Shown: positions 608-59,197 of the stretch, piece after piece
Layout: each line of letters begins with the position of its first letter
Numbering within the stretch: position 1 is the first letter of the stretch
IMG/VR virus record: IMGVR_UViG_3300037475_000199
Span: 1 to 64,000 of that record
Length of the DNA stretch: 64,000 nt
Direction: 5' to 3' (one strand)
Source: a virus
The notes under the pieces: generated by a model
What the model was told of the DNA's origin: nothing
The model's input: only the letters and a program-made list of their open reading frames with translations
Database searches by the model: none
Translations under genes and position numbers: made by a program

Positions 608-865
608 ATGAAATACTTTAAATATAAATGTAGAAATTTTACAGAACTTACAATTCCTTCTGAGATTTTTATTACTAAAAGTTGGTTTGATAAAAGTCTT
701 GATAATGTTCATCTTGTTTTACAACAGGATAAACATCTTTTTAAAATATTAATGTGGAATGGTATTGAAATTTCGCGCTATTTAACAGGATATTCTCTTG
801 CACACGATGTTAATTTTATAGAATTTTCTTTAGAGTCTTTCCAAAATATAAGAGCGTTCTTATAA
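608..865 (+). CDS. small protein of the C-terminal 'LKxF-tail' paralog family
   Basis: Ends ...FQNIRAFL. It is the first of three tandem members linked by ATGA overlaps (608/865/1137). Confidence 0.5.
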   Translation: MKYFKYKCRNFTELTIPSEIFITKSWFDKSLDNVHLVLQQDKHLFKILMWNGIEISRYLTGYSLAHDVNFIEFSLESFQNIRAFL

Positions 866-1140
866 TGCTTTATCTTAAATATTTTAAATTAGAAGTTCCA
901 GAGTCTATTCTAATTTTAGAAGATTCAAAAGCTTTTTCTATAGATAAAAATAATCATTATGTAATTGAAAAACTAAATGATGATACGTTTTGTTTTAGAT
1001 ATATAAATAGGGAACCAGCAGGAGAATTTGCTCGTTATAGTGAATTTGACTTATACAGGATGTTTTTTGATACAGTAATTGGTGTTAAATATAGAGAGTA
1101 TTCTTTAGAAAAATATAATAACCTTAAAGATTTTTTATGA
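865..1140 (+). CDS. small protein of the 'LKxF-tail' family
   Basis: Ends ...YNNLKDFL. Its start overlaps the stop of the preceding gene. Confidence 0.5.
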   Translation: MLYLKYFKLEVPESILILEDSKAFSIDKNNHYVIEKLNDDTFCFRYINREPAGEFARYSEFDLYRMFFDTVIGVKYREYSLEKYNNLKDFL

Positions 1141-1439
1141 AATATTTTATTTTTTCTCAAATTGATCTTATTATGCCAAGCGAGATTCTTCTGATTGAAA
1201 ACTTTAGCCTTAGTTATGCTAAAGGCACACATCTTTGTATTTCAATCGATAAATATGCTTTAGATTTAGATATTTTCTCTATAAATAGAGATCATGGATA
1301 TTTCTTTGTTGAAAAGAAAAATGGATCTAATATTGATTTTAAATCTTTCTTCTACATTCGCCGTCTTTTAAATGAATTTAAAAATAAATATATTGAGTGT
1401 AGTTTAGAGAAGTTTAATGATTTAAAAATATTCTTATAA
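1137..1439 (+). CDS. small protein of the 'LKxF-tail' family
   Basis: Ends ...FNDLKIFL. Similar body to 865..1140 (…SLEK[FY]N[DN]LK[DI]FL). Confidence 0.5.
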   Translation: MKYFIFSQIDLIMPSEILLIENFSLSYAKGTHLCISIDKYALDLDIFSINRDHGYFFVEKKNGSNIDFKSFFYIRRLLNEFKNKYIECSLEKFNDLKIFL

Positions 1440-1461
1440 TAACATGATATATAACAATCAC

Positions 1462-1535
1462 GCCTTCATCGTTCAATGGTAGGACGTTAGCTTGTCACGC
1501 TAATAATGCCGGTTCAATTCCGACTGGGGGCGCCA
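1462..1535 (+). tRNA. tRNA-Asp (GTC)
   Basis: Acceptor GCCTTCA pairs with TGGGGGC through two G-U pairs. D-arm GTTCAATGGTAGGAC. Anticodon loop TTGTCAC. T-arm GGTTCAATTCC. G73 with an encoded CCA. Confidence 0.75.
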
Positions 1536-1547
1536 CTTAATTATTAT

Positions 1548-1622
1548 CCGCTATGAGTCTCTGGTAGAGCTGAGGGGTCTTATAAATCTTTTGGACAGGT
1601 TCGATTCCTGTATGGCGGACCA
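1548..1622 (+). tRNA. tRNA-like element (aberrant; no canonical anticodon arm)
   Basis: Perfect T-arm ACAGG-TTCGATT-CCTGT. Acceptor CCGCTAT pairs with ATGGCGG, followed by A73 and CCA. The D-arm and anticodon-arm region cannot be folded canonically. Confidence 0.4.
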
Positions 1623-1677
1623 TGAGGAATTTTCCTCGCACTGCACATGGTATCCATGTGATAATTTAGGAGCGCTC

Positions 1678-1917
1678 ATGACTAATTTTAATAATCAATC
1701 AGAACTAGATTTTTCTGATATATCTTCAGAAGAATACAGAATTTATGAATTTGAAAGTGGAAGATCAATCTTAATAAATAAACCATTAAGATTAAATGTG
1801 TCACCAAGTGGTGGACACAGGATATATGATGACTCTGGAGAGTCTCATTATATTCCAAAAGGTTGGATTCATCTTAAGTGGAAAGCTAAAGAAGGACAAC
1901 CTAATTTTGTGAAGTGA
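1678..1917 (+). CDS. hypothetical protein (start trimmed to ATG 1678 with SD AGGAG)
   Basis: The track ORF 1591..1917 begins inside the tRNA-like element. An internal ATG is preceded by AGGAG at the right spacing. Confidence 0.4.
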   Translation: MTNFNNQSELDFSDISSEEYRIYEFESGRSILINKPLRLNVSPSGGHRIYDDSGESHYIPKGWIHLKWKAKEGQPNFVK

Positions 1918-2828: not shown

Positions 2829-2834
2829 CAATAT

Positions 2835-2911: not shown

Positions 2912-2947
2912 TTTAAACAATATAATAATTTTAATTAGGAATTATAT

Positions 2948-3478
2948 ATGTGGGCAAAAGAAGATCAAAGAAAATCAGACCAAGCTTTTAGAGAAAGACG
3001 AAGAGCACGTACACATATTGAAATACCAATCAGTAAAATTTGTTCTGAATGTTTAATAGACAAACCGGCTAGTGAATTTACAAGAGACAAAGTCTCTAAA
3101 GATGGTTTAAAATTTCATTGCAAAGCTTGTACTAAAAAAGAAAATGATACTTGGAAAAACAAAAACTGGTTTAAAAAATTATTACATACCGCAAAATCAA
3201 CTTCGAAAAAATATAATCTTTTATTTGATCTGGATGAAGATTTTATAATTGGTTTGTTTAACTATCAAGATAGAAAGTGTTTTTACCTTGGAATAGATTT
3301 AGAGCCAGCATTTAATAGAAGAAAATTAAATTCTCCATCATTAGATAGAATAGATTGCAATAAAGGATATACTAAGGATAATGTGATTTTATGTTCACAA
3401 TTTGCCAATTTAGGTCGGTGTGATGTTCCTTTTGAAGAATTTAAAAATTTTTGCGATCAACTTATAAACAAGACTTGA
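2948..3478 (+). CDS. Endonuclease VII-like / HNH-type nuclease with Zn ribbon
   Basis: CSEC...CKAC zinc ribbon. C-terminal SLDRIDCNKGYTKDNVILCSQFANLG resembles the Endonuclease_7/HNH core (hlDHdh...vRGlLC..CN..lG). Confidence 0.45.
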   Translation: MWAKEDQRKSDQAFRERRRARTHIEIPISKICSECLIDKPASEFTRDKVSKDGLKFHCKACTKKENDTWKNKNWFKKLLHTAKSTSKKYNLLFDLDEDFIIGLFNYQDRKCFYLGIDLEPAFNRRKLNSPSLDRIDCNKGYTKDNVILCSQFANLGRCDVPFEEFKNFCDQLINKT

Positions 3479-3807
3479 AACAAATGCGAAAATTTAATAT
3501 GAAATGTTTTATTTGCAATAATGAGCTTGAAGCTCACACCGTTGGATTAGGTCACTTTTTAGTGTGCCCAATAGATAATATTATTGCTACATTAGGTGAT
3601 GACGGAAAAGTGAAGCACTATTCTTGTTATTATAAACAATATTCATTTAATATTAATTATATAACAAATAAAACAACTGTATCTAAGCAATCATTATCTC
3701 AGTTTAATGAACATACAATAATTACAATTATTGACAGTGCAATTTCTATGCCAACGTCATCAGATGATTTTTTAAAAAAAATTAAGACCATCTTGACATA
3801 TATGTAA
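3451..3807 (+). CDS. hypothetical Cys/His-rich protein
   Basis: ORF in the gene array with a C-x2-C...H motif. Confidence 0.35.
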   Translation: MRSTYKQDLKQMRKFNMKCFICNNELEAHTVGLGHFLVCPIDNIIATLGDDGKVKHYSCYYKQYSFNINYITNKTTVSKQSLSQFNEHTIITIIDSAISMPTSSDDFLKKIKTILTYM

Positions 3808-3818
3808 AAGAGGTTATA

Positions 3819-4013: not shown

Positions 4014-4014
4014 G

Positions 4015-4377
4015 ATGGAATTAACTTGTATATTTTGTCATAATAAATTAATTTTGAGAAATTCTAATTCCGCAATGGAAGGTTATTTTTGTGTTTATCA
4101 AAATGAACATGAAAATGTTAGAAAAAATCATTGGGCTTGGACTTGTCGTAATGATAACTATGAAGTTGAAATTGATGTCATTAATATAATAGTTGATAAA
4201 TATCAATTATGCGCCTCTTTTATGTCTAATAATACTAGATTACTAATCGAATCTAATAAAAATGGCGACGAAATCAAAGATACAATACTAATTATTCCTG
4301 AATTAGATTTTTTCTTTCGTATAAAAACTGAAGAAGATTTTATGAATAAAGTTAAATCTCTCTTATTATTTATGTAA
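4015..4377 (+). CDS. hypothetical protein
   Basis: ORF that is adjacent and co-directional in the array. Confidence 0.35.
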   Translation: MELTCIFCHNKLILRNSNSAMEGYFCVYQNEHENVRKNHWAWTCRNDNYEVEIDVINIIVDKYQLCASFMSNNTRLLIESNKNGDEIKDTILIIPELDFFFRIKTEEDFMNKVKSLLLFM

Positions 4378-5815: not shown

Positions 5816-6787
5816 ATGAGTGGATTAACAAAATTAGCAATTATTTTAGGCGTATTTCTGGTGTCATCACTTCTTTTTGCAGCCTGTACCACTACAAGAG
5901 TAGATGTTGGTCATGTTGGCGTTAAAGTTAAATTAGCTGGTTCAGGGCGCGGCGTTCAAGATATGCAAATTAAAACTGGATGGGTGATTTTTAATCCATT
6001 AACAGAACAAGTTGTAGAGTTTCCGGTTTCAGTTCAAAATATTATTTTAAGCGCCGATCCACATGAAGGTGGCTCAAAAGATGATGCAACATCGGATCAT
6101 TCAGTTGATGAATCAATTACATTTTCTTCTATTGAAGGTGTTAATGCTACCGCAAATGTTGGATTCAGTTTCCACATTGATCCTAATAAGGCTCCACAGC
6201 TTTACGCAAGATTTAGACAAACTGATATGAGAGAGTTAGCTTATGGTTACATGAGAAATGTTATCAGAGAAGGTTTCAGTGAAGTTGGCTCTAAAATGCC
6301 AATTCAAGATATTTATGGTGCTGGTAAAACCAAACTTATTGCAGATGTAACTCATAAGTGTCAAGAGTCTCTTGGAAAAGATGGCGTAATTATTGATCAA
6401 TTAACCATTAATGGTGCTTTAAAACTACCTGAAAATGTTGCTGGTGCAATTAATAATGCTATGGCAGCAACACAAAATGCTATTCAAAGTGAAAATAAAG
6501 TTCGTCAAGTTAAAGCTGAAGCTGAACAAACTATTGCAACTGCACATGGTGCTGCGGAAGCTGCTCGTCAAAAAGCACAAGGTGAGGCTGATGCTCTTCT
6601 TATTAGTGCTGAAGCTGAAGCTAAATCAAGATTGATTAAAGCAGCAGCTGAAGCAAAAGCTAATGATACTGTTCAATCATCTTTGACTCCGCAAATTATT
6701 CGTTATCGTGCCATTAATAGCTGGGATGGTAAGCTCCCAACTTATTTAGGCTCTTCTGGTCCGCTACCAATGATTAATGTTCAATAA
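5816..6787 (+). CDS. SPFH/band-7 (prohibitin/HflK-C-like) membrane protein
   Basis: N-terminal TM followed by an SPFH-like core. C-terminal Ala/Glu-rich coiled coil (AEAEQTIATAHGAAEAARQKAQGEADALLISAEAEAK), as in HflK/C and prohibitins. Confidence 0.6.
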   Translation: MSGLTKLAIILGVFLVSSLLFAACTTTRVDVGHVGVKVKLAGSGRGVQDMQIKTGWVIFNPLTEQVVEFPVSVQNIILSADPHEGGSKDDATSDHSVDESITFSSIEGVNATANVGFSFHIDPNKAPQLYARFRQTDMRELAYGYMRNVIREGFSEVGSKMPIQDIYGAGKTKLIADVTHKCQESLGKDGVIIDQLTINGALKLPENVAGAINNAMAATQNAIQSENKVRQVKAEAEQTIATAHGAAEAARQKAQGEADALLISAEAEAKSRLIKAAAEAKANDTVQSSLTPQIIRYRAINSWDGKLPTYLGSSGPLPMINVQ

Positions 6788-7229
6788 TATTAAGAAAGAA
6801 TTAGTTATGATTGAAAAAATGTCAGATTTAAATCTAGATAAATTAGATCCTAAGGCTGAAGATTATTTAGATCAATTAGATAATTTGGTAAAAGAAAGTT
6901 TAGGAGTTTCATTCTCAGAATTAAAAGCTCCTATTATTTCTTATGTTGCCAGTCATTCTGAAGAATTGTCTTTGCAATTTCCTAATATTGCACCATATGG
7001 AGATTATTCTAAGTTAATTGAAGATAATGATGGTATGTCAGAATTTTTAAAAAAACTAGATCAACCAACTGATTGGAAGATTGCAGTTTTAGAAGAAGAT
7101 AAAAAATATGGCTTACTGAAATTTGGTTTCATTTGTACATCAGTTGATGATGGTGATTCGTTAGAAGGTTTTACTTATGTAACTATGTCTGGCAAGATTA
7201 AACACTCTTTTGCACAATATATTGGATGA
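6777..7229 (+). CDS. hypothetical acidic protein
   Basis: ORF only. Confidence 0.35.
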   Translation: MFNNIKKELVMIEKMSDLNLDKLDPKAEDYLDQLDNLVKESLGVSFSELKAPIISYVASHSEELSLQFPNIAPYGDYSKLIEDNDGMSEFLKKLDQPTDWKIAVLEEDKKYGLLKFGFICTSVDDGDSLEGFTYVTMSGKIKHSFAQYIG

Positions 7230-7510
7230 AAAACCTTACTGATGAAGAAATTGCTGAAGGTTGCGTTATGTCAGCTGATGGTATAAAACGGTGGTATGAT
7301 GAGAATAGACATTATCATCGTCTTGGTGGTCCAGCTATTTTAGGTTTAAATGGAAATCAATTATGGTATAAGCATGGCAGACGTCATTGTTTATGTGGTC
7401 CTGCTGTTGATGTAGATTGGAATAAAGAGTGGTGGGTTGAAGGCGAAAAGATAGAATGTTCTTCTCAAGAAGAGTTTGAACAAATTTTAAAGTTAAAAGC
7501 ATTTTGGTAA
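7226..7510 (+). CDS. MORN-repeat (MORN_2/YwqK-like) protein with LKLKAFW tail
   Basis: Repeats of the W[YW]..NG..HR..GPA type. C-terminus CSSQEEFEQILKLKAFW. Confidence 0.55.
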   Translation: MKNLTDEEIAEGCVMSADGIKRWYDENRHYHRLGGPAILGLNGNQLWYKHGRRHCLCGPAVDVDWNKEWWVEGEKIECSSQEEFEQILKLKAFW

Positions 7511-10131: not shown

Positions 10132-10512
10132 ATGACATTAAAAGAAATACTAAATTCCCTGCGTTGTCCATTATGTGAATCACAAGTAGATGGAATCTAT
10201 AGTTATTCACCACGATTTTATTGTGCTACTGAAAAAGATCATTATAATGTATGGTTTAAAGATAATTTAATTAAAAAAGAAACTATTAATTTGTATGATT
10301 ATAATAAATTAATTAAGTATGAGATCATTAAAATTTATGATGGTGACAATATAACAACTAAAGTTGTTATGGAAAATATTGATGCAGAAGGTAGAGAGAT
10401 TTTTACTTTTGAAGATAGAAGTTTTACGATTGGAATGAGTTTGTTTGATTTTAGGAACTTTAATTTAGATACCGCTTTAAATAAAATAAAAACTATTTTA
10501 TTATTTAAATAA
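10132..10512 (+). CDS. hypothetical protein
   Basis: ORF only. Confidence 0.35.
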   Translation: MTLKEILNSLRCPLCESQVDGIYSYSPRFYCATEKDHYNVWFKDNLIKKETINLYDYNKLIKYEIIKIYDGDNITTKVVMENIDAEGREIFTFEDRSFTIGMSLFDFRNFNLDTALNKIKTILLFK

Positions 10513-16078: not shown

Positions 16079-16082
16079 AAAT

Positions 16083-16177
16083 ATAAAGTTGCGTGAGTGG
16101 ATTAAACGATCACCCGAGTCAGGGTGAGAAAGAACTTATAAAAAGTCTTTCCAAAAGTTCGAATCTTTTACTTTATA
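16083..16177 (+). tRNA. aberrant type II tRNA-like gene (18-nt anticodon arm; possible 8-nt loop; pseudogene?)
   Basis: Acceptor ATAAAGT pairs with ACTTTAT. Three-bp D-stem CGT/ACG. Anticodon region TCACCCGAGTCAGGGTGA. Long variable hairpin GAAAGA...TCTTTC. T-arm AAAAG-TTCGAAT-CTTTT. No CCA. Confidence 0.35.
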
Positions 16178-16182
16178 TTTAT

Positions 16183-17726: not shown

Positions 17727-17962
17727 ATTATTTATTAGTAAATGATGAGCCCTTTCCAAGGGAATTCATTTTAGTTAAAGAACATCATACAATACCAATT
17801 GGCACTCATTATGTTATTGAACCGGCAGCTGCCTATCATTCTGTTGTTAAAATGAAAAATGGAAAAGAGTTTGAGTGCAATATAACTCATAAAGTCCTAT
17901 TAGAGTTTACTGTAAAGCCATGTACAGTTGAACAGTTTTTAAAATTTAAATTATTTATATGA
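17723..17962 (+). CDS. 'LKxF-tail' family small protein
   Basis: Ends ...FLKFKLFI. ATGA-coupled. Confidence 0.45.
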   Translation: MNYLLVNDEPFPREFILVKEHHTIPIGTHYVIEPAAAYHSVVKMKNGKEFECNITHKVLLEFTVKPCTVEQFLKFKLFI

Positions 17963-18210
17963 AATATTTAAAGATAAATGATGAAAAGATTCCCTCAGAA
18001 GTTTTAATAACTTTTATTGATCGTTTAGGTAAAGAACAAACCAATCATTATTGTTTCAGATCTTCTAAAAGTAAAACATATTTAATATGTCACACAATAA
18101 ATGGAAAGATTTTAAAAAATATAATAAATTATTTCATGCAATTTATATTAAGTAATCCACATACTCCCATGACTTTAAAGAAATTTAAAAAATTAAAAGC
18201 ATTTATCTAA
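17959..18210 (+). CDS. 'LKxF-tail' family small protein
   Basis: Ends ...LKKFKKLKAFI. Confidence 0.45.
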   Translation: MKYLKINDEKIPSEVLITFIDRLGKEQTNHYCFRSSKSKTYLICHTINGKILKNIINYFMQFILSNPHTPMTLKKFKKLKAFI

Positions 18211-18667: not shown

Positions 18668-19051
18668 ATGGAAGTTATTGATAATATAAATAATGTATAT
18701 GTTATTAAAAGAAACCTGGCAATTTTAAAAAGATTAGATCCTGAAGGTCATTTTGAATATTCGGTGGGTAATTTTATTTTAAAAATATTTACTCACCGGG
18801 TAGGATCTCAACCCATTGATAATAAGAATGATAGAGTTACTTTTTATGATAAAGTAGACGTTAATCTTTATGAAAAAATAAATGGTTTAGCGAACTATAT
18901 TAAAGTTTTTAGTGATACAAGATTTAGCTCTTGTCCTGCCATTCATTTTGAAGGATCAAATTTTTATGATTTAAATGGATTACCGCTTATTAATCTTTGT
19001 GAGTTAATCAAATTTTTATGTAAAATATCTAACCTATCAGCTTTTTTATGA
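18668..19051 (+). CDS. hypothetical protein with LSAFL tail ('LKxF-tail' family, divergent)
   Basis: Ends ...KFLCKISNLSAFL. Confidence 0.4.
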   Translation: MEVIDNINNVYVIKRNLAILKRLDPEGHFEYSVGNFILKIFTHRVGSQPIDNKNDRVTFYDKVDVNLYEKINGLANYIKVFSDTRFSSCPAIHFEGSNFYDLNGLPLINLCELIKFLCKISNLSAFL

Positions 19052-20452: not shown

Positions 20453-20710
20453 ATGGCTGATTCAAATCCTAACTTTAATTTTTTTATGTTTAAAAACAAT
20501 GGATATACAATCCAAGTAATAATTAAATTTAATAACAATAAATTAGAATTAAAGTTAAAGTTTTTTGATATTAATTATAATTTAATTGGAAATAGTTCTT
20601 TAAATTTTAATATAATAAATAGAAAAATTAAATGGGAACAACCTGTTTGGATAAGCCAAGATTGTATGGATTACTGTGACAAACTCTTAAATTTAAGAGC
20701 ATTTGCATGA
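20453..20710 (+). CDS. 'LKxF-tail' family small protein
   Basis: Ends ...DYCDKLLNLRAFA. Confidence 0.45.
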   Translation: MADSNPNFNFFMFKNNGYTIQVIIKFNNNKLELKLKFFDINYNLIGNSSLNFNIINRKIKWEQPVWISQDCMDYCDKLLNLRAFA

Positions 20711-20955
20711 TAAGTTATAGGTTTTCAGATAAGGGCAAAATTTTTTCTAAAACTGATTATATTATTTTTATTAATTCTAACTTTATTGAAATTGATTTTC
20801 ATATTTATAATAAAGGTAAAATATTAATCTCTACTTCGGCTGAATTTAAAATTGATAATAGTTCTATTAATTGGAATGAACGATTAATAGAATTTATTTC
20901 TGATGAATGTAAAGAATATTGTAATAAGTTGATAAAATTAAAAGCATTTACGTAA
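20707..20955 (+). CDS. 'LKxF-tail' family small protein
   Basis: Ends ...EYCNKLIKLKAFT. ATGA overlap. Confidence 0.45.
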   Translation: MISYRFSDKGKIFSKTDYIIFINSNFIEIDFHIYNKGKILISTSAEFKIDNSSINWNERLIEFISDECKEYCNKLIKLKAFT

Positions 20956-22420: not shown

Positions 22421-22666
22421 ATGTATTATACACAAACTATTAAAGATAAAATTTACACCATGCATTTCACTGGTGAAGGGCTAGGAACTTTATGGGTAAG
22501 ATCTGTTGACGGCGCAAACAAATATTATTCCAACTCTACTATAGTATTTAAAAAGAGTGGTAAAATAAGATATGGAAAAGAAAACGGCTGGCATTTACCA
22601 GTTGAATTCATGATTAATTGCGATAAGATTTATAAAAGACTTTTAAAAATAAACGCTTTTATTTAA
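22421..22666 (+). CDS. 'LKxF-tail' family small protein
   Basis: Ends ...IYKRLLKINAFI. Confidence 0.45.
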   Translation: MYYTQTIKDKIYTMHFTGEGLGTLWVRSVDGANKYYSNSTIVFKKSGKIRYGKENGWHLPVEFMINCDKIYKRLLKINAFI

Positions 22667-23711: not shown

Positions 23712-24008
23712 ATGTATATTTATAAAAATCATACAGACACTCATTTACTTTCTGTTGAAATGAAATTTATAAAGATGTCTAAAAAAACTGTTGGATATGA
23801 TAAAGGTATTTGTATTGAAATAAAAGGATATACGATTGATGATTATAATTTTGAATATACTTTAGGATCATATTCTTATCCATATCCAATTTTTGAAGGA
23901 GAAATTTTATGGAATCCTCTATCTAAAATGGACAAAGAATTTGATATAGATGTGGCGGATTTAAAAAAGTTTTGTGAAAAAATAGTAAAGTTAAAAATAT
24001 TTGAATGA
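23712..24008 (+). CDS. 'LKxF-tail' family small protein
   Basis: Ends ...FCEKIVKLKIFE. Confidence 0.45.
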   Translation: MYIYKNHTDTHLLSVEMKFIKMSKKTVGYDKGICIEIKGYTIDDYNFEYTLGSYSYPYPIFEGEILWNPLSKMDKEFDIDVADLKKFCEKIVKLKIFE

Positions 24009-24244
24009 AATTTATATATAAAGACAAATATGTTCCAAACTTAAATATTTCAGTAATTTTGGCAGATAATAATTTTGGAGTATATGTGGATGATTATCCT
24101 TACAATTTTGATAATGATATGGTATTTGAAGGTACTTTAAAAAATGTGGTTGAGTGGCATTATGCCTTTGTTGAATATAATATTGATGCCCATGCACTTA
24201 AAAGATTTTGTAGGTGTTTAATAAAAAATAAAGCTTTTATCTGA
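24005..24244 (+). CDS. 'LKxF-tail' family small protein
   Basis: Ends ...FCRCLIKNKAFI. ATGA overlap. Confidence 0.45.
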   Translation: MKFIYKDKYVPNLNISVILADNNFGVYVDDYPYNFDNDMVFEGTLKNVVEWHYAFVEYNIDAHALKRFCRCLIKNKAFI

Positions 24245-24625: not shown

Positions 24626-25036
24626 ATGAATTTTTTAAATTTAAATGAAGTAAAAGAATGTTTGAGTGCTTTAAATAGAGTGCAAGACAATTTATTTGCA
24701 GATAATTTTGAATCGTTAAAAATAAATAATTTTAAAATAGAATTTCGAGCAGGACAACATAGTTTTTGTTATCCAAGACAAAAACTAAAATGTATCATAG
24801 ACTACGAATCAATTCAAATAAGTATATCTGACTATAATGAAGCCGGCATTATTTCAATGATCCGACCATTAAAAGATAATAGACTTTCATATTTTAGTTG
24901 GGCAAATTGCTTTTCTTTCAAAACTAATCGGCAGCTTGTTCAAGCTAGTTATATTGGTTGTAATATACCGATTTCTACTGCTTGTCAAATAGTTAAAGAT
25001 CTTTATAAGGTAAGTCAGCTCAAAACTTTTTTCTAA
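24626..25036 (+). CDS. hypothetical protein with QLKTFF tail (family-like)
   Basis: Ends ...YKVSQLKTFF. Confidence 0.4.
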   Translation: MNFLNLNEVKECLSALNRVQDNLFADNFESLKINNFKIEFRAGQHSFCYPRQKLKCIIDYESIQISISDYNEAGIISMIRPLKDNRLSYFSWANCFSFKTNRQLVQASYIGCNIPISTACQIVKDLYKVSQLKTFF

Positions 25037-33494: not shown

Positions 33495-33576
33495 TTAAAC
33501 ATATGTTTGAATCTGTTATATAGGTTCATGTTCCCAGAGAGGGAACTTTATAATTTAGACAACATGGAGAATGTTA

Positions 33577-34633: not shown

Positions 34634-36085
34634 ATGAGAACAGTAATCGCAAGAAAAGAAGACTTAGAACATAGCAACGTTACCGACACTGATAGTTACA
34701 AGTTTAGCCATTTTATTTTATATAAGAAGGCTGGCGTAACTAGAATGTTTAGTTATCTAGAGTCTCGTGGTGGTGAATTTGATGTTTCTACTATTTCAGC
34801 CCTACAAGTAGCATTACATAGATACATTGCAAAAGGATTTAAGAGAAAGGACATTGATCGTGCAGAAAAGCTTGCAGCTAAACATGGCGTCCCTTTCAAT
34901 CGTCCAGGATTTGAAGCCATGTATAACAAATATAATGGTAAGTTTCCAGTTAGAATTAGATCTATTCCTGAAGGTATGATAGTTCCAGTTTCAACTGCAC
35001 TATTAACTATTGAGTGTTGTGACGAAGATTGTTTTTGGATTGTCAATTGGCTAGAGACTTTATTATCTAGAATTTGGTATCCTTCTACTATTGCAATTGC
35101 AAGTCGTTCAGTCAAGAAACTTTGGAAGCACTTCTTAGATATGACTTCCGATAATACTGATCTCGAAATTGGATTTAAGCATCATGATTTCGGATCTAGA
35201 GGAGTAACCTGCTTTGAGCAAGCCGAATTGGGCGGTATGGCTCACTTGTTGAGCTTCTTTGGTTCTGATACTTTAGCGGGTGTTGAGCTTGCCAATTACT
35301 ACTATGATTGTGATATGTCAGGATTCTCGATTTGTGCTACTGAACATTCTACCATGACTATTTTTGGTCGTGCTGGTGAACGTCAAGCACTTATTGATTG
35401 GATTACTGAAACATTGGTTAATGTTCCAAATATTCCTGGTGTACCTAAAGTGTCTGCTTGTGTTGGTGACAGCTACAATATCTATGATTTTACTACACTA
35501 GTAAGTCGTGATGATGAGGTAAGAAACTTAATTGCTAATTCAGGGGGCACTTTAGTAGTAAGACCAGATAGCGGTAAACCATCTGAAGTTCTTCCTAAAA
35601 TATTGGAATTGTTTGAGCAAAACTTGCCATCAGGATCTATTACTGTTAATAGTAAGGGATACAAAGTTCTACCTTCATATTTGAGACTTATTTGGGGTGA
35701 TGGCATTAACCGTCGTTCAATGAAAGATATTCTTCAATTAGTAGTTGATCTTGGTTGGAGTGCATCTAATATTGCGTTAGGTTCTGGTGGCGGTTTATTG
35801 CAAGATGTTAATCGTGATACACAGAAGTTTGCTTTTAAGTGTTCGTTTGCTGAAGCAAAAGGCGTCTCAATTGATGTTCTTAAAGATCCAATCACTGATC
35901 CTGGAAAGAAATCAAAAGCGGGTCGCCTTGACACTATTAAGCTTCCAGATGGTGAAATTAAAACAGTCTCCATTGGAGTAAATGAAGAATGTCATCCTCT
36001 TAGCATTATGAATACTGTTTTTGAAATGGGAGATATTACTTATCACACTACGTTCGCTGAATGTAGAGACAGAATGGCGCTATGA
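34634..36085 (+). CDS. nadV: nicotinamide phosphoribosyltransferase (NAMPT/NadV)
   Basis: DTDSYKFSHF near the N-terminus matches the NAMPT DSYK motif. About 480 aa, the size of NadV. Confidence 0.65.
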   Translation: MRTVIARKEDLEHSNVTDTDSYKFSHFILYKKAGVTRMFSYLESRGGEFDVSTISALQVALHRYIAKGFKRKDIDRAEKLAAKHGVPFNRPGFEAMYNKYNGKFPVRIRSIPEGMIVPVSTALLTIECCDEDCFWIVNWLETLLSRIWYPSTIAIASRSVKKLWKHFLDMTSDNTDLEIGFKHHDFGSRGVTCFEQAELGGMAHLLSFFGSDTLAGVELANYYYDCDMSGFSICATEHSTMTIFGRAGERQALIDWITETLVNVPNIPGVPKVSACVGDSYNIYDFTTLVSRDDEVRNLIANSGGTLVVRPDSGKPSEVLPKILELFEQNLPSGSITVNSKGYKVLPSYLRLIWGDGINRRSMKDILQLVVDLGWSASNIALGSGGGLLQDVNRDTQKFAFKCSFAEAKGVSIDVLKDPITDPGKKSKAGRLDTIKLPDGEIKTVSIGVNEECHPLSIMNTVFEMGDITYHTTFAECRDRMAL

Positions 36086-37420: not shown

Positions 37421-37687
37421 ATGCGTGGTTGGACTGGCTTAGTTGGAAAAATAGACGGAGCTCATTTTTATTATGTAAATGGACTTTTGCATAGAGAAGA
37501 TGGTCCAGCCATAATAGAAGATAATGGAGATAAGTTTTGGATGCAAAATCATATGCTTCACAGATTAGATGGTCCTGCATCAGAATTTGCTGATGGTGGT
37601 AAAGAATGGTTTATTTGGGATGAAAAGATTCCGTGCTCATCTCAAGAAGAATTTGAAAGAGTTCTTAAGTTAAGAACATTTTGGTAA
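37421..37687 (+). CDS. MORN-repeat protein with KLRTFW tail
   Basis: YVNGLLHREDGPA and MQNHMLHRLDGPA repeats. C-terminus CSSQEEFERVLKLRTFW. Confidence 0.55.
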   Translation: MRGWTGLVGKIDGAHFYYVNGLLHREDGPAIIEDNGDKFWMQNHMLHRLDGPASEFADGGKEWFIWDEKIPCSSQEEFERVLKLRTFW

Positions 37688-37690: not shown

Positions 37691-37960
37691 ATGAAAAACT
37701 CTTATAAAATGAAAGATGGAATTAATATTAGAGATGATGGCGCTATTTGTTATGTTAAAAATAGAAAATATCACAGAGAAGATGGACCGGCTATAATTTT
37801 AGAAGGACAATATAGATGTTGGCTTCAAAATGATGTATATTACCGTCTTGATGGACCAGCCGTGGAAGATGATAATGGTTATAAAGAATGGCATGTTGAT
37901 GATAAAGTATTCTTTACAGAAGAAGAGTATAGAATGTGGAAAATTAAAACTTTTAGTTAA
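37691..37960 (+). CDS. MORN-repeat protein with KIKTFS tail
   Basis: NRKYHREDGPA and VYYRLDGPA repeats. Confidence 0.5.
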   Translation: MKNSYKMKDGINIRDDGAICYVKNRKYHREDGPAIILEGQYRCWLQNDVYYRLDGPAVEDDNGYKEWHVDDKVFFTEEEYRMWKIKTFS

Positions 37961-37970: not shown

Positions 37971-38885
37971 ATGTGTAATGTACTCGTAGGCACAGCTGTT
38001 GGTGATGCTTTAGGTGTTCCATTTGAAACTTTTTTGATAAATAATCCTCTTCTTTTAGATTGGGATGGAACAACTTATCTTGGAAGTAAATATCATGGTT
38101 TAGAACCAGGTCAATACTCAGATGACACTCAACTATCTATTTTGGTTGCTAAATCATTAATATTAAATTCTGGATTTAATCCAGACGATTTAGCTGCAAG
38201 ATATCAAGATTGGTTTTTTTCTGGCGTTGCACGAGGTTATGGTAAAACAACAAAGTTAGCTATGGAAGCTCTTAAAAGTGGTAAACATTGGAATGAATCT
38301 GGGATTGCCGGCTCTTTAGGTAATGGAACGGCTATGCGTGCAGCTCCATTTGGAGTTTACTTTAGAAATGATTTTAAACAATTAATTGCTGCAGTAAAAA
38401 TAGATTCAGCAATTACGCATGTTTCAGAAGATGCTGAAGCTGGAGCTATTGCTATTGCATTAACAGCAGCTTATGCCGTTAATCGTAACACTGAAAATCT
38501 TTTAGACAAAATTTGTGAAAATTTACCAGACTGTAAAGTTAAAAAAACAATTTCTAGTTTGGATGCATTAATTAACGCAGATAATATTACTCCTCCACAA
38601 GCTTTAAGAGTATTGGGGACAAAGGCTAATGTACAAGAAACTGTGCCCGCAGCATTATATTGTTTTCTGAAATTTGATAATTATCACGATGCTGTGCTTG
38701 CTGCAATTAAAGCTGGTGGTGATACCGACACTACTGCCGCAATAGTTGGAGCTTTATTTGGAGCCAGAGATGGAATCAAAAAGATAGATAGAAAATTTTA
38801 TTCGGTAGAAGATTTTGATAAATTAATAGAGTTAGATAGCCAGCTTTATAACAGATCTAATTCATTATTTTTTCCTAGAAACTAA
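37971..38885 (+). CDS. ADP-ribosylglycohydrolase (ARH/DraG family)
   Basis: N-terminal VLVGTAVGDALGVPFE matches the ARH GdAlG...E motif. C-terminal AGGDTDTTAAIVGALFGA is the metal-binding D-T-D region. Confidence 0.6.
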   Translation: MCNVLVGTAVGDALGVPFETFLINNPLLLDWDGTTYLGSKYHGLEPGQYSDDTQLSILVAKSLILNSGFNPDDLAARYQDWFFSGVARGYGKTTKLAMEALKSGKHWNESGIAGSLGNGTAMRAAPFGVYFRNDFKQLIAAVKIDSAITHVSEDAEAGAIAIALTAAYAVNRNTENLLDKICENLPDCKVKKTISSLDALINADNITPPQALRVLGTKANVQETVPAALYCFLKFDNYHDAVLAAIKAGGDTDTTAAIVGALFGARDGIKKIDRKFYSVEDFDKLIELDSQLYNRSNSLFFPRN

Positions 38886-42039: not shown

Positions 42040-42667
42040 ATTTTTAATTATATCAGATGATGAAACTGAACGAAAAAGATATGCAAAAAAACTATTAAAG
42101 CAAGATTTTCTTACCAAAGAAAGTGAAAAGGCAAAAATTGCTATTACTAAGTTTTTAGAAGAAAATCCTGACATTAATATTGATTATGCCATTATTCATA
42201 TGAAAGATTCAATTTTAAGTACAATTAAATGCGCAGAAAAATTAGGAATTAGTCCAAAAGCTTTTCTTAGATTAAGAAAAAAGTATAATATTGTACCTGT
42301 CTCTGAAATTAAGAATAGTTATAAATCAAAAAGTTTTGCTCCGCATTTTTCAAAGAAAGCTACTAAGAATTTCTATAGCATTTATCAGCTAAAAAGAATT
42401 CCCAAATCAGAAATTGATTTATCTCAAAAAAGGTCGGGCAGTAATTTAAAGCTTGGAATTAAAATAAAATGGAAACCAAGAGGCTATCATTCAAATGGAA
42501 AATTAAAAGCTAGAACTGACTATTTGAGTAAATATGGATTTTTCGTTCTTTATAATCATAAAGATGATAATTATACTGTTAATAAAGATGACAAAAATAC
42601 AATTTTGTCAAAAAAAGAAGTAGATGTTTTGAATCAAAAATACTTACGATTAAAGAGCTTTGTATGA
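42032..42667 (+). CDS. hypothetical protein with RLKSFV tail
   Basis: Ends ...KYLRLKSFV. Confidence 0.4.
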   Translation: MDEFLIISDDETERKRYAKKLLKQDFLTKESEKAKIAITKFLEENPDINIDYAIIHMKDSILSTIKCAEKLGISPKAFLRLRKKYNIVPVSEIKNSYKSKSFAPHFSKKATKNFYSIYQLKRIPKSEIDLSQKRSGSNLKLGIKIKWKPRGYHSNGKLKARTDYLSKYGFFVLYNHKDDNYTVNKDDKNTILSKKEVDVLNQKYLRLKSFV

Positions 42668-52855: not shown

Positions 52856-52856
52856 T

Positions 52857-54184: not shown

Positions 54185-55690
54185 ATGGCAGAGAAATTAG
54201 TTGCTTATTCGGCAGGCGAAGAACCGTCTTTTCCTGGAGATTATGATGTAGTAAAAAGGACTACATTAAATTTTACAGACATTATTAACAACAACAATAA
54301 ATATTATAATTTAGAAGTTCAAGTTGCTAAGAATGGCAGTTCAAGAATTTTTACTCAGTATGGTCGAGTAGGCGGAACGGCAGCCAAAGAATATCGAGTA
54401 GCAGCTAATCAGTCTCATGCTGAAACTGAAGCCGAAAAAATTATCAAGTCCAAAACTAAAAAGGGCTATGTTGAAGTTAAATTGGTAAAAGCTGATATTG
54501 GGTCCGAAGCAGGCAAGGCTAAAGTTGATACTTCAGCTTCTAGCGTATCAGTTGATACACTTAAAAAGATGGGTGTTAAAGTTCAGGAAGCAGAAACCAG
54601 TAAATTACATCCTGAAATTGGAGATTTAGTTAGAACTTGGTTCGGCGTTACACAGGAATTTATTGAATTAAATCTTGACACTAAAAAGTGTCCATTAGGT
54701 CAATTATCGATTGATCAAATTGATAAAGCAAAAGAAATATTAGATGAAGCTCGTTTAATTATTCATGCATCTAAACCAGATGTATTAGAATTAAATAAAT
54801 TAACTAACTCTTATTATAGTAACATTCCTCATAACTTTGGTTATGGTAGAATTAATGCCGATGTACTTCGTTTAGACAACGATGATAAGGTAAATAAAGC
54901 TTTTGATATATTAGATGTTTTTGGTTCAGCTAAAAACGTTCAAAGTGTTATTTCAAAGAAATCGGCTGTAGACTCTCAGTATGCCACTTTAAATGCTGAT
55001 TTAAATTTTATTGATCCAAAAGATCCTATTTGGAAATGGATTGACACTATGTTGCATGAGACTAAAGCTAGCAATCATCATTTCTTAGGCAAATTAAAAA
55101 CTCATAAAATTTATAAAGTAAATCGTAAAGGTGAAGAACAGTATTTTCTTAAGAATGCAGAGAAGATTGCTAAAGAATGTGGAAAGCATGATCCTTCTCC
55201 AGTTTACTCTAAATTAGTTAAATCTCGCCCAGATGTATCAAAAGAGCTAAGAGATTTGTATGCAAGAGCTAACGTTTCTCCTGGTTGGCATGGAACTCGT
55301 AGAGCTAATATGATTGGCATTACTACTAAAGGTCTTTTAATTAGACCTTCAGGTGTAGTTCATGCTGGTTCAATGTATGGTGACGGTGTTTACTGGGCTA
55401 CTAATAGTACTAAGAGCATCAATTACTGTGATGTTCGTGGCTCATATTGGGCTGCTGGTACAAATAAAACGGCTTATTTATTCTTAGGTGATGTTGCTTT
55501 TGGTAATTATAAATATGCTAATGGCTCACAATATTATAATAGAAAGAATATTTCGCCAGCACATTCTGTTTTTGCTCAAGGCGGGAAGAGCGGAGTATTG
55601 AATGACGAAATTATTACTTATACTCCATCGGGTCCAGAGCAACAACATTGTTTAAGATATATTATTGAATTCGAAACACAAGCAAAATGA
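54185..55690 (+). CDS. PARP-like ADP-ribosyltransferase (WGR domain plus PARP catalytic domain; H-Y-D variant)
   Basis: WGR-like YYNLEVQ...QYGRVGG. Catalytic WHGTRRANMIGI...GSMYGDGVYWA carries the H-G-T motif and Tyr. YLFLGDVAFGNY aligns with PARP1 LLLGEVALG, with Asp in place of the catalytic Glu. Confidence 0.6.
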   Translation: MAEKLVAYSAGEEPSFPGDYDVVKRTTLNFTDIINNNNKYYNLEVQVAKNGSSRIFTQYGRVGGTAAKEYRVAANQSHAETEAEKIIKSKTKKGYVEVKLVKADIGSEAGKAKVDTSASSVSVDTLKKMGVKVQEAETSKLHPEIGDLVRTWFGVTQEFIELNLDTKKCPLGQLSIDQIDKAKEILDEARLIIHASKPDVLELNKLTNSYYSNIPHNFGYGRINADVLRLDNDDKVNKAFDILDVFGSAKNVQSVISKKSAVDSQYATLNADLNFIDPKDPIWKWIDTMLHETKASNHHFLGKLKTHKIYKVNRKGEEQYFLKNAEKIAKECGKHDPSPVYSKLVKSRPDVSKELRDLYARANVSPGWHGTRRANMIGITTKGLLIRPSGVVHAGSMYGDGVYWATNSTKSINYCDVRGSYWAAGTNKTAYLFLGDVAFGNYKYANGSQYYNRKNISPAHSVFAQGGKSGVLNDEIITYTPSGPEQQHCLRYIIEFETQAK

Positions 55691-56949: not shown

Positions 56950-57136
56950 AGTTGTAGAAAATCTTGCAAATCTGACTAATAAGGTAATAAGAAAATTTAA
57001 TTACCTTGGGGAAGCTGAGCATTATATAAAAACAGAAAATAAGCCGAATTTAAGAATTAGACATTTGCCATTGCTAGAAACTTCTGTCTCAGGCGTTATT
57101 AGATTCTATAAATTAGAGCCTTATTGAGAAAATAAA

Positions 57137-57361
57137 ATGGGAATATTTATCTTTAATGATTCTGTGGTTTTTCATAAGCTAACTTCTCTTAAAATAATCA
57201 ATAAAGTTTTAAGGGGATTAGAAGCCAAATTTCCAATTGAAGTATATCCCAATTATGCAACTGAAAAAGATTTCTATAAATATACATTTAAAGAATCTAT
57301 TACTGATGAAACCTTAAAGAGGGCTTACGAATATTTAAGTAAGTTTAATAAAAATGCATAA
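57137..57361 (+). CDS. small hypothetical protein
   Basis: ORF only. Confidence 0.3.
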   Translation: MGIFIFNDSVVFHKLTSLKIINKVLRGLEAKFPIEVYPNYATEKDFYKYTFKESITDETLKRAYEYLSKFNKNA

Positions 57362-57626
57362 AAAGAAAACAAAGAAAAAATCTGCTTATAAAATTATGAA
57401 AGTATTTGATTGTCAAGATATGCCAGAAAATATTCGTCAAATGTTCTTTGAACTGTGTGAATCTGGCAATGATTGTTATGTTGATTGGACCATTAATGGT
57501 ACGACAGACGAATATATAACAGATGAAGAAAAAGCAATTGATGCTTGGTTGATATCTAATGGAGCGAATGGCGCTCCATCTGAAGATGATTCAGGAGAAG
57601 ATATATTAATTAGGCATTGGTGGTAA
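57354..57626 (+). CDS. small hypothetical protein
   Basis: The ORF overlaps the upstream stop. Confidence 0.3.
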   Translation: MHKKKTKKKSAYKIMKVFDCQDMPENIRQMFFELCESGNDCYVDWTINGTTDEYITDEEKAIDAWLISNGANGAPSEDDSGEDILIRHWW

Positions 57627-57627
57627 T

Positions 57628-58371
57628 ATGTTTAATAAATTTAATAAAATTTTAAACCTAATAAAACAAAGTTCTTCTCCATTTATTTTGTGTGCCATCG
57701 CTGCTGCATGTGATAATAAAGGAGAAATCCCTATATCGACATCTTTTTATAAACAAATAATAACTAAATATGGACCAAATATATCTAAAGGTAAAACTCC
57801 CCAAAATACTTTAAGCACATTATTACAATATCAGACTGGACTTGGAAGAACTATATTTCGTCGTAGGTCAAATAATTTAGAGTTAATAGATAAATCATAT
57901 TTGTCCACATTAAAAGAAGTTGCGCTTAGTTATTTGCCACCAACTTCTTTAAACATTAATAATGTTAAGCCTTTTATATCACTAACGACTCAAGCGCCGC
58001 AACCTTTAATTGATGAATTTAAAGTTCCTAAACAACATTTACAATCATACTTAAATGAAGGAATTTATATTGGAGTTGATCAAGAAACAAAAGATGGCAA
58101 AATTCAAATTAAAATAGGAAGATCTAATGATATTAAATCTCGTTTTAAAAGTTTAAAGCCGTATAAACTTGGAGCAATAGTGTCTGCTGACTTTTCAATC
58201 AAAGAAGAAAACAAATTTAAAAATAAATATTTGGAATTTAAACATGACGGCGAATATTTTCTTGTACCAAAAGATATATATAAAGAAATTATATCTTTAG
58301 ATGTTTCAAAAGAATATTCGCCTATTTCTTTAAAAAAGAAAATAGAAGATTTAATTGGAAAGAAAATATAA
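57628..58371 (+). CDS. hypothetical protein
   Basis: ORF only. Confidence 0.4.
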   Translation: MFNKFNKILNLIKQSSSPFILCAIAAACDNKGEIPISTSFYKQIITKYGPNISKGKTPQNTLSTLLQYQTGLGRTIFRRRSNNLELIDKSYLSTLKEVALSYLPPTSLNINNVKPFISLTTQAPQPLIDEFKVPKQHLQSYLNEGIYIGVDQETKDGKIQIKIGRSNDIKSRFKSLKPYKLGAIVSADFSIKEENKFKNKYLEFKHDGEYFLVPKDIYKEIISLDVSKEYSPISLKKKIEDLIGKKI

Positions 58372-58388
58372 TTTATGGAAAAAATTTA

Positions 58389-58865
58389 ATGATTACTATA
58401 ATTCAGGGAGATTTAATAGAAGCTAAAGAGAAATATTTGATCCACCAAACAAATTGTGTTTCGCATTTCGCGGCAGGTATTGCACAAACTATTTTTTCTA
58501 AATTTCCATATGCTAATGTTTATGCTAATAGAATAGAAGAAGACTTACCTGGACATATAGTTATTTGTGGTAACGGTAAAGATCAAAGATACATTGTTAA
58601 TTTAATGGGTCAGTTCTATCCTGGTGGATATTCTGAATCAGACATTGACAATGAAAAAGCACGACAACAATATTTCCACAAAGGATTACTTAGATTGGCT
58701 AAAATTCCTAATTTAGAGAGTGTTGCTTTTAATTTTAAAATTGGATGCGGAATTGGCGGAGGTAATTGGAATTGGTATAAAGGTACTCTTGAAAACTTTG
58801 CTAATTATATTGATAGTACACAAGGAGCTAAAACTTTTATCTATCAAAGAGAAGGTGACGTTTAA
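58389..58865 (+). CDS. macrodomain (ADP-ribose binding/hydrolase) protein
   Basis: ITIIQGDLIEAKEKYLIHQTNCVSHFAAGIAQ parallels the macro signature GDIT...IVNAAN..L.GGgGV. Confidence 0.55.
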   Translation: MITIIQGDLIEAKEKYLIHQTNCVSHFAAGIAQTIFSKFPYANVYANRIEEDLPGHIVICGNGKDQRYIVNLMGQFYPGGYSESDIDNEKARQQYFHKGLLRLAKIPNLESVAFNFKIGCGIGGGNWNWYKGTLENFANYIDSTQGAKTFIYQREGDV

Positions 58866-59197
58866 TGAAAAACGGATTAATAATTGATGATTATGGTACT
58901 CAAAAATGGTATAAAGAAGATCTTTTACATAAAGAAGACGGTCCTGCCGTAATCTGGAAAAGTGGAGATAAAGAATACCGCATTAATGGACAACTTCACA
59001 GAGAAGATGGTCCTGCTATTGAGTATAATAATTTTCATATGTGGTATTTTAATGATAAACTTCATAGAGTTGAAGGCGCCGCCGTCATTGACATTTTTAA
59101 TGATGAAAAAGAGTATTGGTATAAAGGAAAATCAGTTGAGGACATAGAAACTGACGAGGATTTTAAAAATTTCATCAAATTCAAGGCGTTTTGGTAA
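58865..59197 (+). CDS. MORN-repeat protein with KFKAFW tail
   Basis: LLHKEDGPA and QLHREDGPA repeats. C-terminus DEDFKNFIKFKAFW. Confidence 0.55.
   Translation: MKNGLIIDDYGTQKWYKEDLLHKEDGPAVIWKSGDKEYRINGQLHREDGPAIEYNNFHMWYFNDKLHRVEGAAVIDIFNDEKEYWYKGKSVEDIETDEDFKNFIKFKAFW

Follow-up and report, generated by a model that had tools for sequence, protein, structure and literature searches.

A strictly C-terminal peptide carried by unrelated small proteins in the accessory region of a large uncultivated phage

Why would proteins with little else in common end in the same few residues? The question is raised by the IMG/VR virus record IMGVR_UViG_3300037475_000199, whose first 64,000 nucleotides (positions 1 to 64,000, hereafter the window) are an accessory region of a large uncultivated phage. 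An initial annotation, made from the letters of the sequence, had reported a shared C-terminal tail on at least 17 open reading frames (ORFs) of the window, and the tail proves to be even better supported than was claimed: the pattern [LIVMFKN][KRNS]xFx-stop ends 18 of the 117 non-nested ORFs of the plus strand, for 0.84 expected from the internal rate of the same pattern. These 18 ORFs, of 79 to 211 aa, form the member set (Table 1), which means that roughly one in six genes of the window bears the tail, and the coordinates and example tails originally given are all correct. As detailed below, the tail is a peptide module that is portable, stands strictly at the C-terminus and is carried by many unrelated small and soluble bodies.

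A tail fixed to the end of small proteins

The core of the tail reads Φ-x-[K/N]-[L/I/M]-[K/R]-[A/S/T]-F-Φ-COOH, with SQEEFERLIKLKAFW, SLEKFNNLKAFL and DEFRRILKLKSFL as examples from different families. Alignment from the C-terminus gives the logo K(-6) L(-5) K/R(-4) A/T(-3) F(-2) Φ(-1), with weaker conservation to about position -11, and a hidden Markov model (HMM) built from the window tails alone finds exclusively terminal matches in independent loci (40 of 40 hits of at least 10 bits). The last eight residues carry a net charge of +1.8, and the tail is usually the end of a predicted helix of 10-15 residues, which often opens with an acidic or aromatic stretch such as [ST]-x-E-[EK]-[FY]. Its hydrophobic moment is close to that of other C-termini (0.31 vs 0.30), equally at helix and at strand periodicity.

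The window has 30% GC, is 90% coding and K/L/F-rich, and its genes lie almost all on the plus strand. The objection foreseen at the outset, that the codon bias of AT-rich DNA would suffice to produce such endings, nevertheless fails. Shuffling the last eight residues within each ORF (2000 shuffles) yields a mean of 1.7 matching ORFs and a maximum of 7, against the 18 observed, and the tail is therefore a matter of positional order and not of K/F/L-rich composition. The pattern ends none of 60 control ORFs on the minus strand of the window and none of 82 off-frame ORFs on the plus strand, and Phe occupies position -2 in 27 of the 117 window ORFs (P=2e-11). As a control, a 50-kb accessory region of the unrelated Bacillus phage G (29.8% GC) shows Phe at -2 in 4 of 67 ORFs, which corresponds to the background, and contains no ORF scoring with the tail HMM. 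The protein gp302 of this phage (...EEFKKILKCFA) has a tail-like look, but its HMM score of -1.0 led us to discard it as a chance resemblance.

Beyond the window, 35 IMG/VR loci (numbered with the prefix L) were fetched via the repeat family described below, with one tail per locus by construction; counting these built-in cases, the tail ends 119 of 1167 ORFs, for 7 expected. The de-duplicated tail-bearers number 98, fall into 27 body clusters at the BLAST level and have a median length of 92 aa. Over window and loci, the 4-mer [LIVMF][KR]xF followed by one single residue occurs in 114 cases, 46 of them on non-repeat bodies, whereas at offsets of 0, 2 and 3 residues there are 0, 1 and 1 cases, with about 2.7 expected per offset. 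The carriers are soluble: none of the 98 has a transmembrane-like segment, compared with 54 of 516 other small ORFs. The share of ORFs with the tail amounts to 21% at 70-90 aa, 13.5% at 90-110 aa, 11% at 110-140 aa, about 2% at 140-300 aa and 0% from 300 aa upwards, and none of the 179 proteins of at least 230 aa bears it.

Grouped with their relatives from other loci, the members give five families: A (with the N-terminus MKYxK..PSEΦLΦ), B, Z (of the Zn-ribbon type), D, and C (of the repeat type). The bodies had been described as otherwise dissimilar, and this holds: after trimming the last 16 aa, BLAST leaves similarity only among the four repeat proteins of the window and in three tandem pairs, and profile-profile comparison leaves nothing between families. 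With hhalign, each of the 10 family pairs has its best match at the C-terminal end, where the last columns of one family align with the last columns of the other. This match spans 9-21 columns in most pairs and 34 and 42 columns in two, at E values from 2e-4 to 0.08, and it is gone after the 16-aa trim (E 0.06-0.86). AlphaFold2 (AF2) models point in the same direction, with beta-hairpin repeats plus a terminal helix for the member at 37421 (predicted local distance difference test, pLDDT, of 89) and a six-strand sheet plus a terminal helix for family A (pLDDT 77). Fold searches with these two models gave no hits in common, and the one with the family A body gave no match. In both models the confidence is lowest in the tail, with a pLDDT of 79 vs 94-96 in the preceding blocks of the repeat model, and of 67 and then 44 vs 82-87 in those of the family A model, values that are compatible with an exposed peptide.

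The four repeat-type members (7226, 37421, 37691 and 58865) had been taken for MORN_2-type bodies. They do contain beta-hairpin repeats of about 23 residues ('W[YF]xNGxLHR(E/L)DGPA'), but their HR(E/L)DGPA signature is distinct, and none of the four matches the Pfam families MORN and MORN_2 (PF02493, PF07661) even at E<=1. The best Foldseek matches of the repeat model are MORN proteins, all of them non-significant (E>=0.13, TM scores of 0.3-0.4), including TbMORN1 6t68, junctophilin 7rxq and radial-spoke proteins, and some relatives of the repeat family are assigned to PF20530 (DUF6745). The MORN label is thus only a resemblance and not a demonstrated membership.

Selection acts on the peptide of the tail and not on its DNA. 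In five of five families, conservation is highest in the last 8 columns (0.51 vs 0.21, 0.46 vs 0.24, 0.31 vs 0.19, 0.46 vs 0.21 and 0.76 vs 0.51). The codons at conserved tail positions follow the genome-wide usage, with Ala(-3) spread over GCA, GCT and GCG, and identical tail residues share the same codon at a frequency of 0.607, for 0.621 expected (between families, 0.599 vs 0.616). The 30 nt downstream show a similarity of 0.312 after member genes and of 0.314 after other genes, and the peptide stays constant across genomes of 30-48% GC. Family A bodies are found in two contigs only among 5.8 billion proteins, yet their tail is common across genomes. Of the three roles proposed in the initial annotation, the recombination 'cassette end' has to be rejected, since neither codon identity nor downstream nucleotides show any excess, while the idea of a tag on divergent bodies finds support. 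As for the tandem ATGA-coupled runs of members, the runs are real and their genes overlap through ATGA, except for the pair 608/865, which shares a 1-nt TAATG overlap.

Five further ORFs of the window with looser endings (those starting at 3451, 4015, 10132, 32314 and 48823) are listed as doubtful because they could not be linked to the canonical families. The ending of 10132..10512 can be regarded as conserved but distinct, given that its orthologue on a 447-kb IMG/VR contig (IMGVR_UViG_3300009545_000018; L023:12792-13172) ends in ...AINKIKTFLVFG. The CxxC (Zn-ribbon-like) proteins at 3451-3807, 4015-4377, 10132-10512 and L023:12792-13172 finish in either ...K[IV]K[ST][IL]L[LT][FY][MK] or ...NKIKTFLVFG, and these endings may represent a second, related tail type conserved between two genomes. 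A longer variant of the tail, ...SSQEEFxxSxEYRxWK[LI][KR]AF[KTH], is found at 37691-37960 of the window and at L010:9375-9905, L029:10441-11746 and L030:38-427, a sub-family in which the final residue is often Lys instead of hydrophobic.

Table 1. Tail-bearing and doubtful ORFs of the window, with selected genes of its translation and NAD+/ADP-ribose repertoire
Feature	Position	Strand	C-terminal end	Tail (nt)	Remarks
Family A member, 85 aa	608..865	+	...SLESFQNIRAFL	827-865	
Family A member, 91 aa	865..1140	+	...SLEKYNNLKDFL	1102-1140	
Family A member, 100 aa	1137..1439	+	...SLEKFNDLKIFL	1401-1439	
Repeat family C member, 94 aa	7226..7510	+	...SSQEEFEQILKLKAFW	7472-7510	HR(E/L)DGPA beta-hairpin repeats
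Family A member, 79 aa	17723..17962	+	...TVEQFLKFKLFI	17924-17962	
Family A member, 83 aa	17959..18210	+	...TLKKFKKLKAFI	18172-18210	AF2: beta body, terminal helix residues 73-82
Family D member, 127 aa	18668..19051	+	...FLCKISNLSAFL	19013-19051	
Family B member, 85 aa	20453..20710	+	...YCDKLLNLRAFA	20672-20710	
Family B member, 82 aa	20707..20955	+	...YCNKLIKLKAFT	20917-20955	
Family B member, 81 aa	22421..22666	+	...IYKRLLKINAFI	22628-22666	
Family B member, 98 aa	23712..24008	+	...FCEKIVKLKIFE	23970-24008	
Family B member, 79 aa	24005..24244	+	...FCRCLIKNKAFI	24206-24244	
Family D member, 136 aa	24626..25036	+	...DLYKVSQLKTFF	24998-25036	
Singleton body, 196 aa	29724..30314	+	...IPDTLKAFV	30276-30314	Cys-rich, CxxCxGxG-like motif
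Repeat family C member, 88 aa	37421..37687	+	...SSQEEFERVLKLRTFW	37649-37687	AF2 (pLDDT 89): beta-hairpin repeats, terminal helix residues 75-86
Repeat family C member, 89 aa	37691..37960	+	...TEEEYRMWKIKTFS	37922-37960	Variant tail
Singleton basic body, 211 aa	42032..42667	+	...LNQKYLRLKSFV	42629-42667	
Repeat family C member, 110 aa	58865..59197	+	...DEDFKNFIKFKAFW	59159-59197	
Doubtful variant, 118 aa	3451..3807	+	...DDFLKKIKTILTYM		CxxC N-terminus; marginal link to canonical-tail Zn-ribbon proteins of other loci (E=0.005, 117-protein search)
Doubtful variant, 120 aa	4015..4377	+	...EDFMNKVKSLLLFM		CxxC N-terminus; no homology link to canonical families found
Doubtful variant, 126 aa	10132..10512	+	...ALNKIKTILLFK		CxxC
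Doubtful, 365 aa	32314..33411	+	...ELFDIKKYLLFT		Phe at -2, without K at -4; no relatives in loci
Doubtful, 113 aa	48823..49164	+	...NKVLKDFWT		Tail one residue out of register
EF-Ts	25098-26006				
NMNAT-Nudix	33571-34590				
NAMPT	34634-36085				
ADP-ribosylglycohydrolase	37971-38885				
WGR-PARP_reg-PARP	54185-55690				Eukaryote-like WGR + regulatory + catalytic architecture

Addition of the tail to other proteins and its spread

Sequence comparisons indicate that, on at least one occasion, a known enzyme acquired the tail as a graft. The enzyme is a deoxynucleoside monophosphate (dNMP) kinase whose Pfam DNMK domain ends at residue 181 of 213 and is followed by a C-terminal extension ending in ...DSADEFRRILKLKSFL. 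Six orthologues of the kinase (at least 71% identity) keep the extension of about 17 aa, which ends in ...EFRRILKLKSFL, whereas more than 100 relatives (at most 56% identity) stop at the last kinase helix and lack it. The neighbour of the tagged kinase, a 1171-aa DNA polymerase (L025:12788-16303), has an acidic end, ...LYDEGLIDLEEEQDD, of opposite charge to the basic tail.

The repeat proteins also treat the tail as a terminal element. In the multi-unit proteins P0247 (947 aa), P0249 (573 aa), P0259 and P0277, the internal units keep '[ST]QEEFExWLK' and continue into a linker, and the '[KR][AS]FW' ending, missing from these internal units, is present in the terminal unit only. In P0247 and P0249 the linker is conserved (...[ST]QEEFExWLK-x(6-9)-LPRQ[DN]ILNLE...) and constitutes another way to end the same helix. 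The sole internal tail in the loci, at L027:6750-7238 (P0248, 162 aa), belongs to two fused repeat-plus-tail units, where ...KLKAFF runs directly into LIMNSY... before the final ...KLKAFW, apparently through the loss of the stop codon between tandem genes. Metagenome homologues of the repeat protein have the near-invariant ending C-x-SQEEFERLIKLK[AL]FW-COOH, and other relatives that share these repeats show quite different C-terminal modules in place of the tail. At least two such modules, ...VTLEDIAKAMNIDVDKLRIKE and ...CxGKxVEIDGKKYKL, recur on the HR(E/L)DGPA repeats of P0015, P0021, P0026, P0067, P0079 and others, and the repeat scaffold is therefore able to swap its C-terminal modules.

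A profile of the last 30 residues, run exhaustively against 1.84 billion representative proteins, retrieved 572 clusters. Of the best 150 hits, 140 have the tail as their end and only 2 extend one residue beyond it. Most loci clearly resemble phages and contain genes for DNA polymerase, rIIB, PhoH, RNR and homing endonucleases, and the tail carriers sit in a clade of large AT-rich phages. The tail was not found by Pfam and PHROGs searches on 20 members, and among deposited phages there are matches to the repeats, none with the tail, and no close relative of the window. The search of 185,579 GTDB species genomes for the repeat-plus-tail family, which thereby did not test the tail alone, gave no confirmed relative, and the sequence search of the PDB with the repeat-plus-tail profile gave no match. 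A literature search with tail strings, repeat strings and MORN combined with jumbo or huge phages returned nothing relevant, and the jumbo-phage survey by Iyer et al. does not mention the tail.

The largest expansion, with 28 repeat-plus-tail paralogues, was found in the 91-kb contig IMGVR_UViG_3300048502_000185 (L004, L006, L008 and L014). This element encodes an FtsK/SpoIIIE ATPase, DNA methylases, pentapeptide repeats, DUF2786/DUF7168, an Xre/ParS antitoxin and a STAND NTPase, with no clear capsid, portal or tail (virion) genes. It may be a plasmid-like element or a non-tailed virus, in which case the peptide would not be confined to tailed phages.

Candidate roles of the tail

A targeting or packaging tag and a degron, the other two roles suggested from the beginning, are both possible. 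The interpretation that we favour, to which we would give about an even chance, is that of a docking tag whose free C-terminus forms part of the epitope recognized by one conserved partner. The last six residues or so, together with the free alpha-carboxylate, would fit a pocket on one conserved receptor, and dozens of different accessory proteins would thereby be gathered at the same place or machine. More tentatively, large AT-rich phages may possess an unrecognised sorting system, in which one receptor would read the 'zip code' K-L-K-A-F-Φ-COOH and gather 10-20% of the small ORFans and at least one enzyme. The destination of the cargo would be either the capsid, as a ready-made anti-defence arsenal to be co-injected, or a phage-built compartment, and any gene could supply new cargo once about 12 residues had been grafted onto it. 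A somewhat more doubtful proposal is that the receptor itself is a phage-encoded assembly of high capacity, such as the procapsid interior or scaffold, or some other phage-built compartment; in the procapsid option, tagged proteins would be packaged and co-injected like the internal proteins of T4.

Several observations weigh against the docking tag. The last residue follows the body family (W in repeat proteins, L/I/V elsewhere), a hint that the tail makes some contact with the body that carries it. Apart from this residue, no genome-specific flavour of the tail was seen, and nothing therefore points to the tail co-evolving with a phage-specific receptor. In the model of the repeat family, the first half of the helix (pLDDT 94) probably packs on the body, and the presumed exposure of the tail is deduced from pLDDT only. 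No receptor was found, and the window ORFs scanned include no capsid, scaffold, protease, clamp, PDZ or TPR gene. Finally, a dNMP kinase makes an odd capsid cargo, and the 91-kb element without clear virion genes speaks against a capsid receptor specifically, while allowing a host-encoded partner. An additional idea, that the tail would start with a prohead-protease site ([STAG]-x-E), was dropped: the cleavage-like motif [ST]-x-E is present in 22% of the body clusters, compared with 14% in the background, and, not being universal, it does not represent a built-in protease site.

The closest analogues of the tail would be the capsid-targeting sequence (CTS) of the T4 internal proteins and, next to it, the cargo-loading peptides of encapsulins. 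T4 internal proteins are small and highly diverse, many of them with anti-defence functions, and have in common only the CTS, which is portable to foreign proteins (PMC3012670). As with IPI, IPII, IPIII and Alt, the proteins described here are small and diverse and resemble one another in a short terminal peptide alone, and their bodies are hypervariable, small and organized in arrays. In contrast with the CTS, however, the tail is C-terminal, keeps an exact terminal register, lacks any universal cleavage-like site and has an unrelated sequence, and one of the elements with carriers might be something other than a tailed phage. The CTS of T4 is N-terminal and is removed by the prohead protease. 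Encapsulin cargo peptides, for their part, dock to the interior of a shell with the HK97 fold, which is the phage capsid fold, and their consensus is Gly/Ser-rich, follows a flexible linker and is not known to be tied to a one-residue register. The tail is short, portable, C-terminal and present on diverse cargo, as encapsulin cargo-loading peptides are (reviewed in PMC7355545), but it forms a Lys/Phe-based helix continuous with the body and ends in K-L-K-A-F-Φ. Moreover, no capsid or shell family was detected among the window ORFs scanned, and no shell gene lies next to the carriers there. A third comparison concerns poxvirus ankyrin-repeat proteins, which plug into a common host machine through a C-terminal PRANC/F-box-like element, PRANC being a folded domain of about 30-50 aa in viruses of eukaryotes. 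The repeat sub-family is likewise made of expanded paralogues (the 28 of the 91-kb element) with variable binding surfaces and one short conserved C-terminal element, whereas the core of the tail has 6-12 residues and is present on many non-repeat bodies.

The main rival to the docking tag, though in our opinion rather unlikely, is a C-terminal degron. An AAA+ protease of the host or the phage (of the ClpXP, ClpAP or FtsH type) would read the tail and its free carboxylate, and many early accessory proteins would then be either short-lived or competitive decoys of the protease. The strict terminal register, with no extension tolerated, would agree with a degron but is not specific to one; it is a hallmark of ssrA- and MuA-type tags, which end in ...YALAA-COOH and ...RRKKAI-COOH, respectively, and of which ClpX reads the alpha-carboxylate. 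The mixture of basic and hydrophobic residues recalls the MuA class, the core persists across different GC contents and perhaps also on an element other than a phage, as would be expected if a conserved host machine read it, and the carriers are small accessory proteins. On the other hand, the tail is predicted to form a helix that runs on from a folded body, unlike known degrons, which typically lack structure, and its aromatic plus hydrophobic ending is unlike the small-aliphatic endings of known ClpX motifs. Its gain by an enzyme of nucleotide metabolism, followed by maintenance under purifying selection, would be harder to understand if the tail marked proteins for destruction. Neither the window nor 24 of the loci contain a tmRNA, and consequently there is no tmRNA tag that the tail could resemble; no protease gene was found in window or loci. 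The search of bacterial genomes, made with the repeat-plus-tail family and not with the tail by itself, did not find that family, which also counts against a degron.

Self- or hetero-association through the terminal helix, with tails that bundle and so oligomerise their carriers or assemble many of them into one complex, seems improbable. It would be consistent with the conserved residues of the predicted helix (-11, -8, -5, -2 and -1) lying on one face, with the coexistence of many carriers per genome and with the kinase, for which a short oligomerisation helix is a plausible add-on. Nevertheless, 6-12 residues make a short core for a stable bundle, the hydrophobic moment does not exceed that of ordinary C-termini, and bundling leaves unexplained why one extra residue after F-Φ is not tolerated.

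Still lower is the probability that the tail is an integral structural helix, that is, the last and merely most conserved helix of one very divergent superfamily, with no separate function. In its favour, members adjacent in tandem are clearly paralogous, the alignment of families B and D to the repeat family covers 34-42 terminal columns, a longer stretch than the core, and the first half of the helix is kept in the internal repeat units and modelled with high confidence. Those same internal units, however, drop the terminal pentapeptide, and repeat proteins exchange the tail for other C-termini. The bodies are undetectably related once trimmed, the two models differ in architecture, the tail was added to a kinase whose relatives are devoid of it, and ordinary terminal helices have ragged ends with no fixed register.

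Two more possibilities have an even slimmer chance, the same for both. A membrane-targeting amphipathic helix of the MinD/FtsA type would park the carriers on the inner membrane, but such anchors need no exact terminal register, and the ordinary hydrophobic moment at both periodicities argues against a MinD-type anchor, as does the lysine within the conserved hydrophobic face, even if the composition recalls the MinD membrane-targeting sequences (K-Φ-K-x-F-F) and the carriers are otherwise soluble. A tether to the sliding clamp or replisome, with L-x-x-F-Φ-COOH as a clamp-binding motif similar to the PIP box or to that of T4 gp43, would agree with the PIP-like form of L(-5)-x-x-F(-2)-Φ(-1) at the extreme C-terminus, and a tagged dNMP kinase would be sensible near the replisome. 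Yet the conserved Gln of clamp motifs is absent, the few binding sites of a clamp would have to serve dozens of clients, the proteins of at least 230 aa are free of the tail, and its absence from the DNA polymerase beside the tagged kinase (which ends in ...LIDLEEEQDD), the ligase and the UvrD helicase argues against a clamp motif. Hardly any credit is left for a DNA-level feature, either a recombination 'cassette end' or a signal for translational coupling where genes join, which would make the peptide only apparent: many members do lie in ATGA-overlapping tandem arrays, but the codon identities, the mixed Ala(-3) codons, the downstream sequences and the constancy of the peptide across GC contents refute it at this resolution. 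Lastly, a compositional artefact of a K-, L- and F-rich genome with abundant K, F, L and I codons near stops has a practically null probability, refuted as it is by the shuffles, the ORFs in non-coding frames, the phage G control and the transfer of the profile to independent loci.

Genomic surroundings and significance

The tail-bearing arrays of the window are interspersed with 17 tRNA genes (1462-27697), including a call at 16082-16178 whose anticodon has four bases (agtc) and to which no amino acid is assigned. The order of the tRNA genes (Asp-Ile-Met-Ile-Lys-Lys-Ala) shows synteny with L023 on the 447-kb contig. Shine-Dalgarno-like motifs are enriched 5' of the starts (45 of 116, vs about 18 at random positions), and TAG is a rare stop codon that ends 3 of the 117 ORFs. 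In a 62-kb contig of the set, a tRNA with a CTA anticodon (L019:4416-4491), named tRNA-Pyl by ARAGORN, could be an amber suppressor and a hint of TAG recoding in that relative. Other genes of the window are related to translation (EF-Ts, PTH2, Cpn10 and Thg1) or encode nucleic-acid enzymes and the like (NAD-dependent ligase, UvrD helicase, Dam methylase, RNase HII, RNA ligase, HNH endonucleases and OMP decarboxylase).

A dense island of NAD+/ADP-ribose genes extends over 25098-56949, and the repertoire comprises NAMPT, NMNAT-Nudix, ADP-ribosylglycohydrolase, WGR-PARP, two NADAR and a Macro gene, with the PARP accompanied by NAD+ salvage enzymes. It is probably a counter-defence against either NAD+ depletion or ADP-ribosylation. 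The tail-bearing repeat genes 37421 and 37691 lie directly upstream of the ADP-ribosylglycohydrolase gene, and another of these repeat genes, 7226-7510, closes an overlapping operon-like unit (5816-7510) together with a Band 7/SPFH gene (5816-6787) and a 150-aa ORF (6777-7229).

Short terminal peptides for sorting or recognition are already known as a general kind, and what is new here is this particular motif, its one-residue C-terminal register and its spread over 10-20% of the small ORFs within one clade of huge phages. The majority of the genes in such phages are small ORFans without any functional handle, and the tag places about one sixth of the genes of this region, and about one fifth of the 70-90-aa ORFs across related loci, in one functional class. 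It also predicts a single searchable partner, and with it a testable system of sorting, delivery or turnover. If packaging or localisation were true, the tag would mark the deployable accessory arsenal of the phage and would offer a very short engineering tag for cargo loading, and if the degron were true, early proteins would prove to undergo programmed turnover to an extent that has not been described in phages. Either way, the tail provides a simple sequence rule, unnamed in current databases, for the annotation of metagenomic phage proteins.

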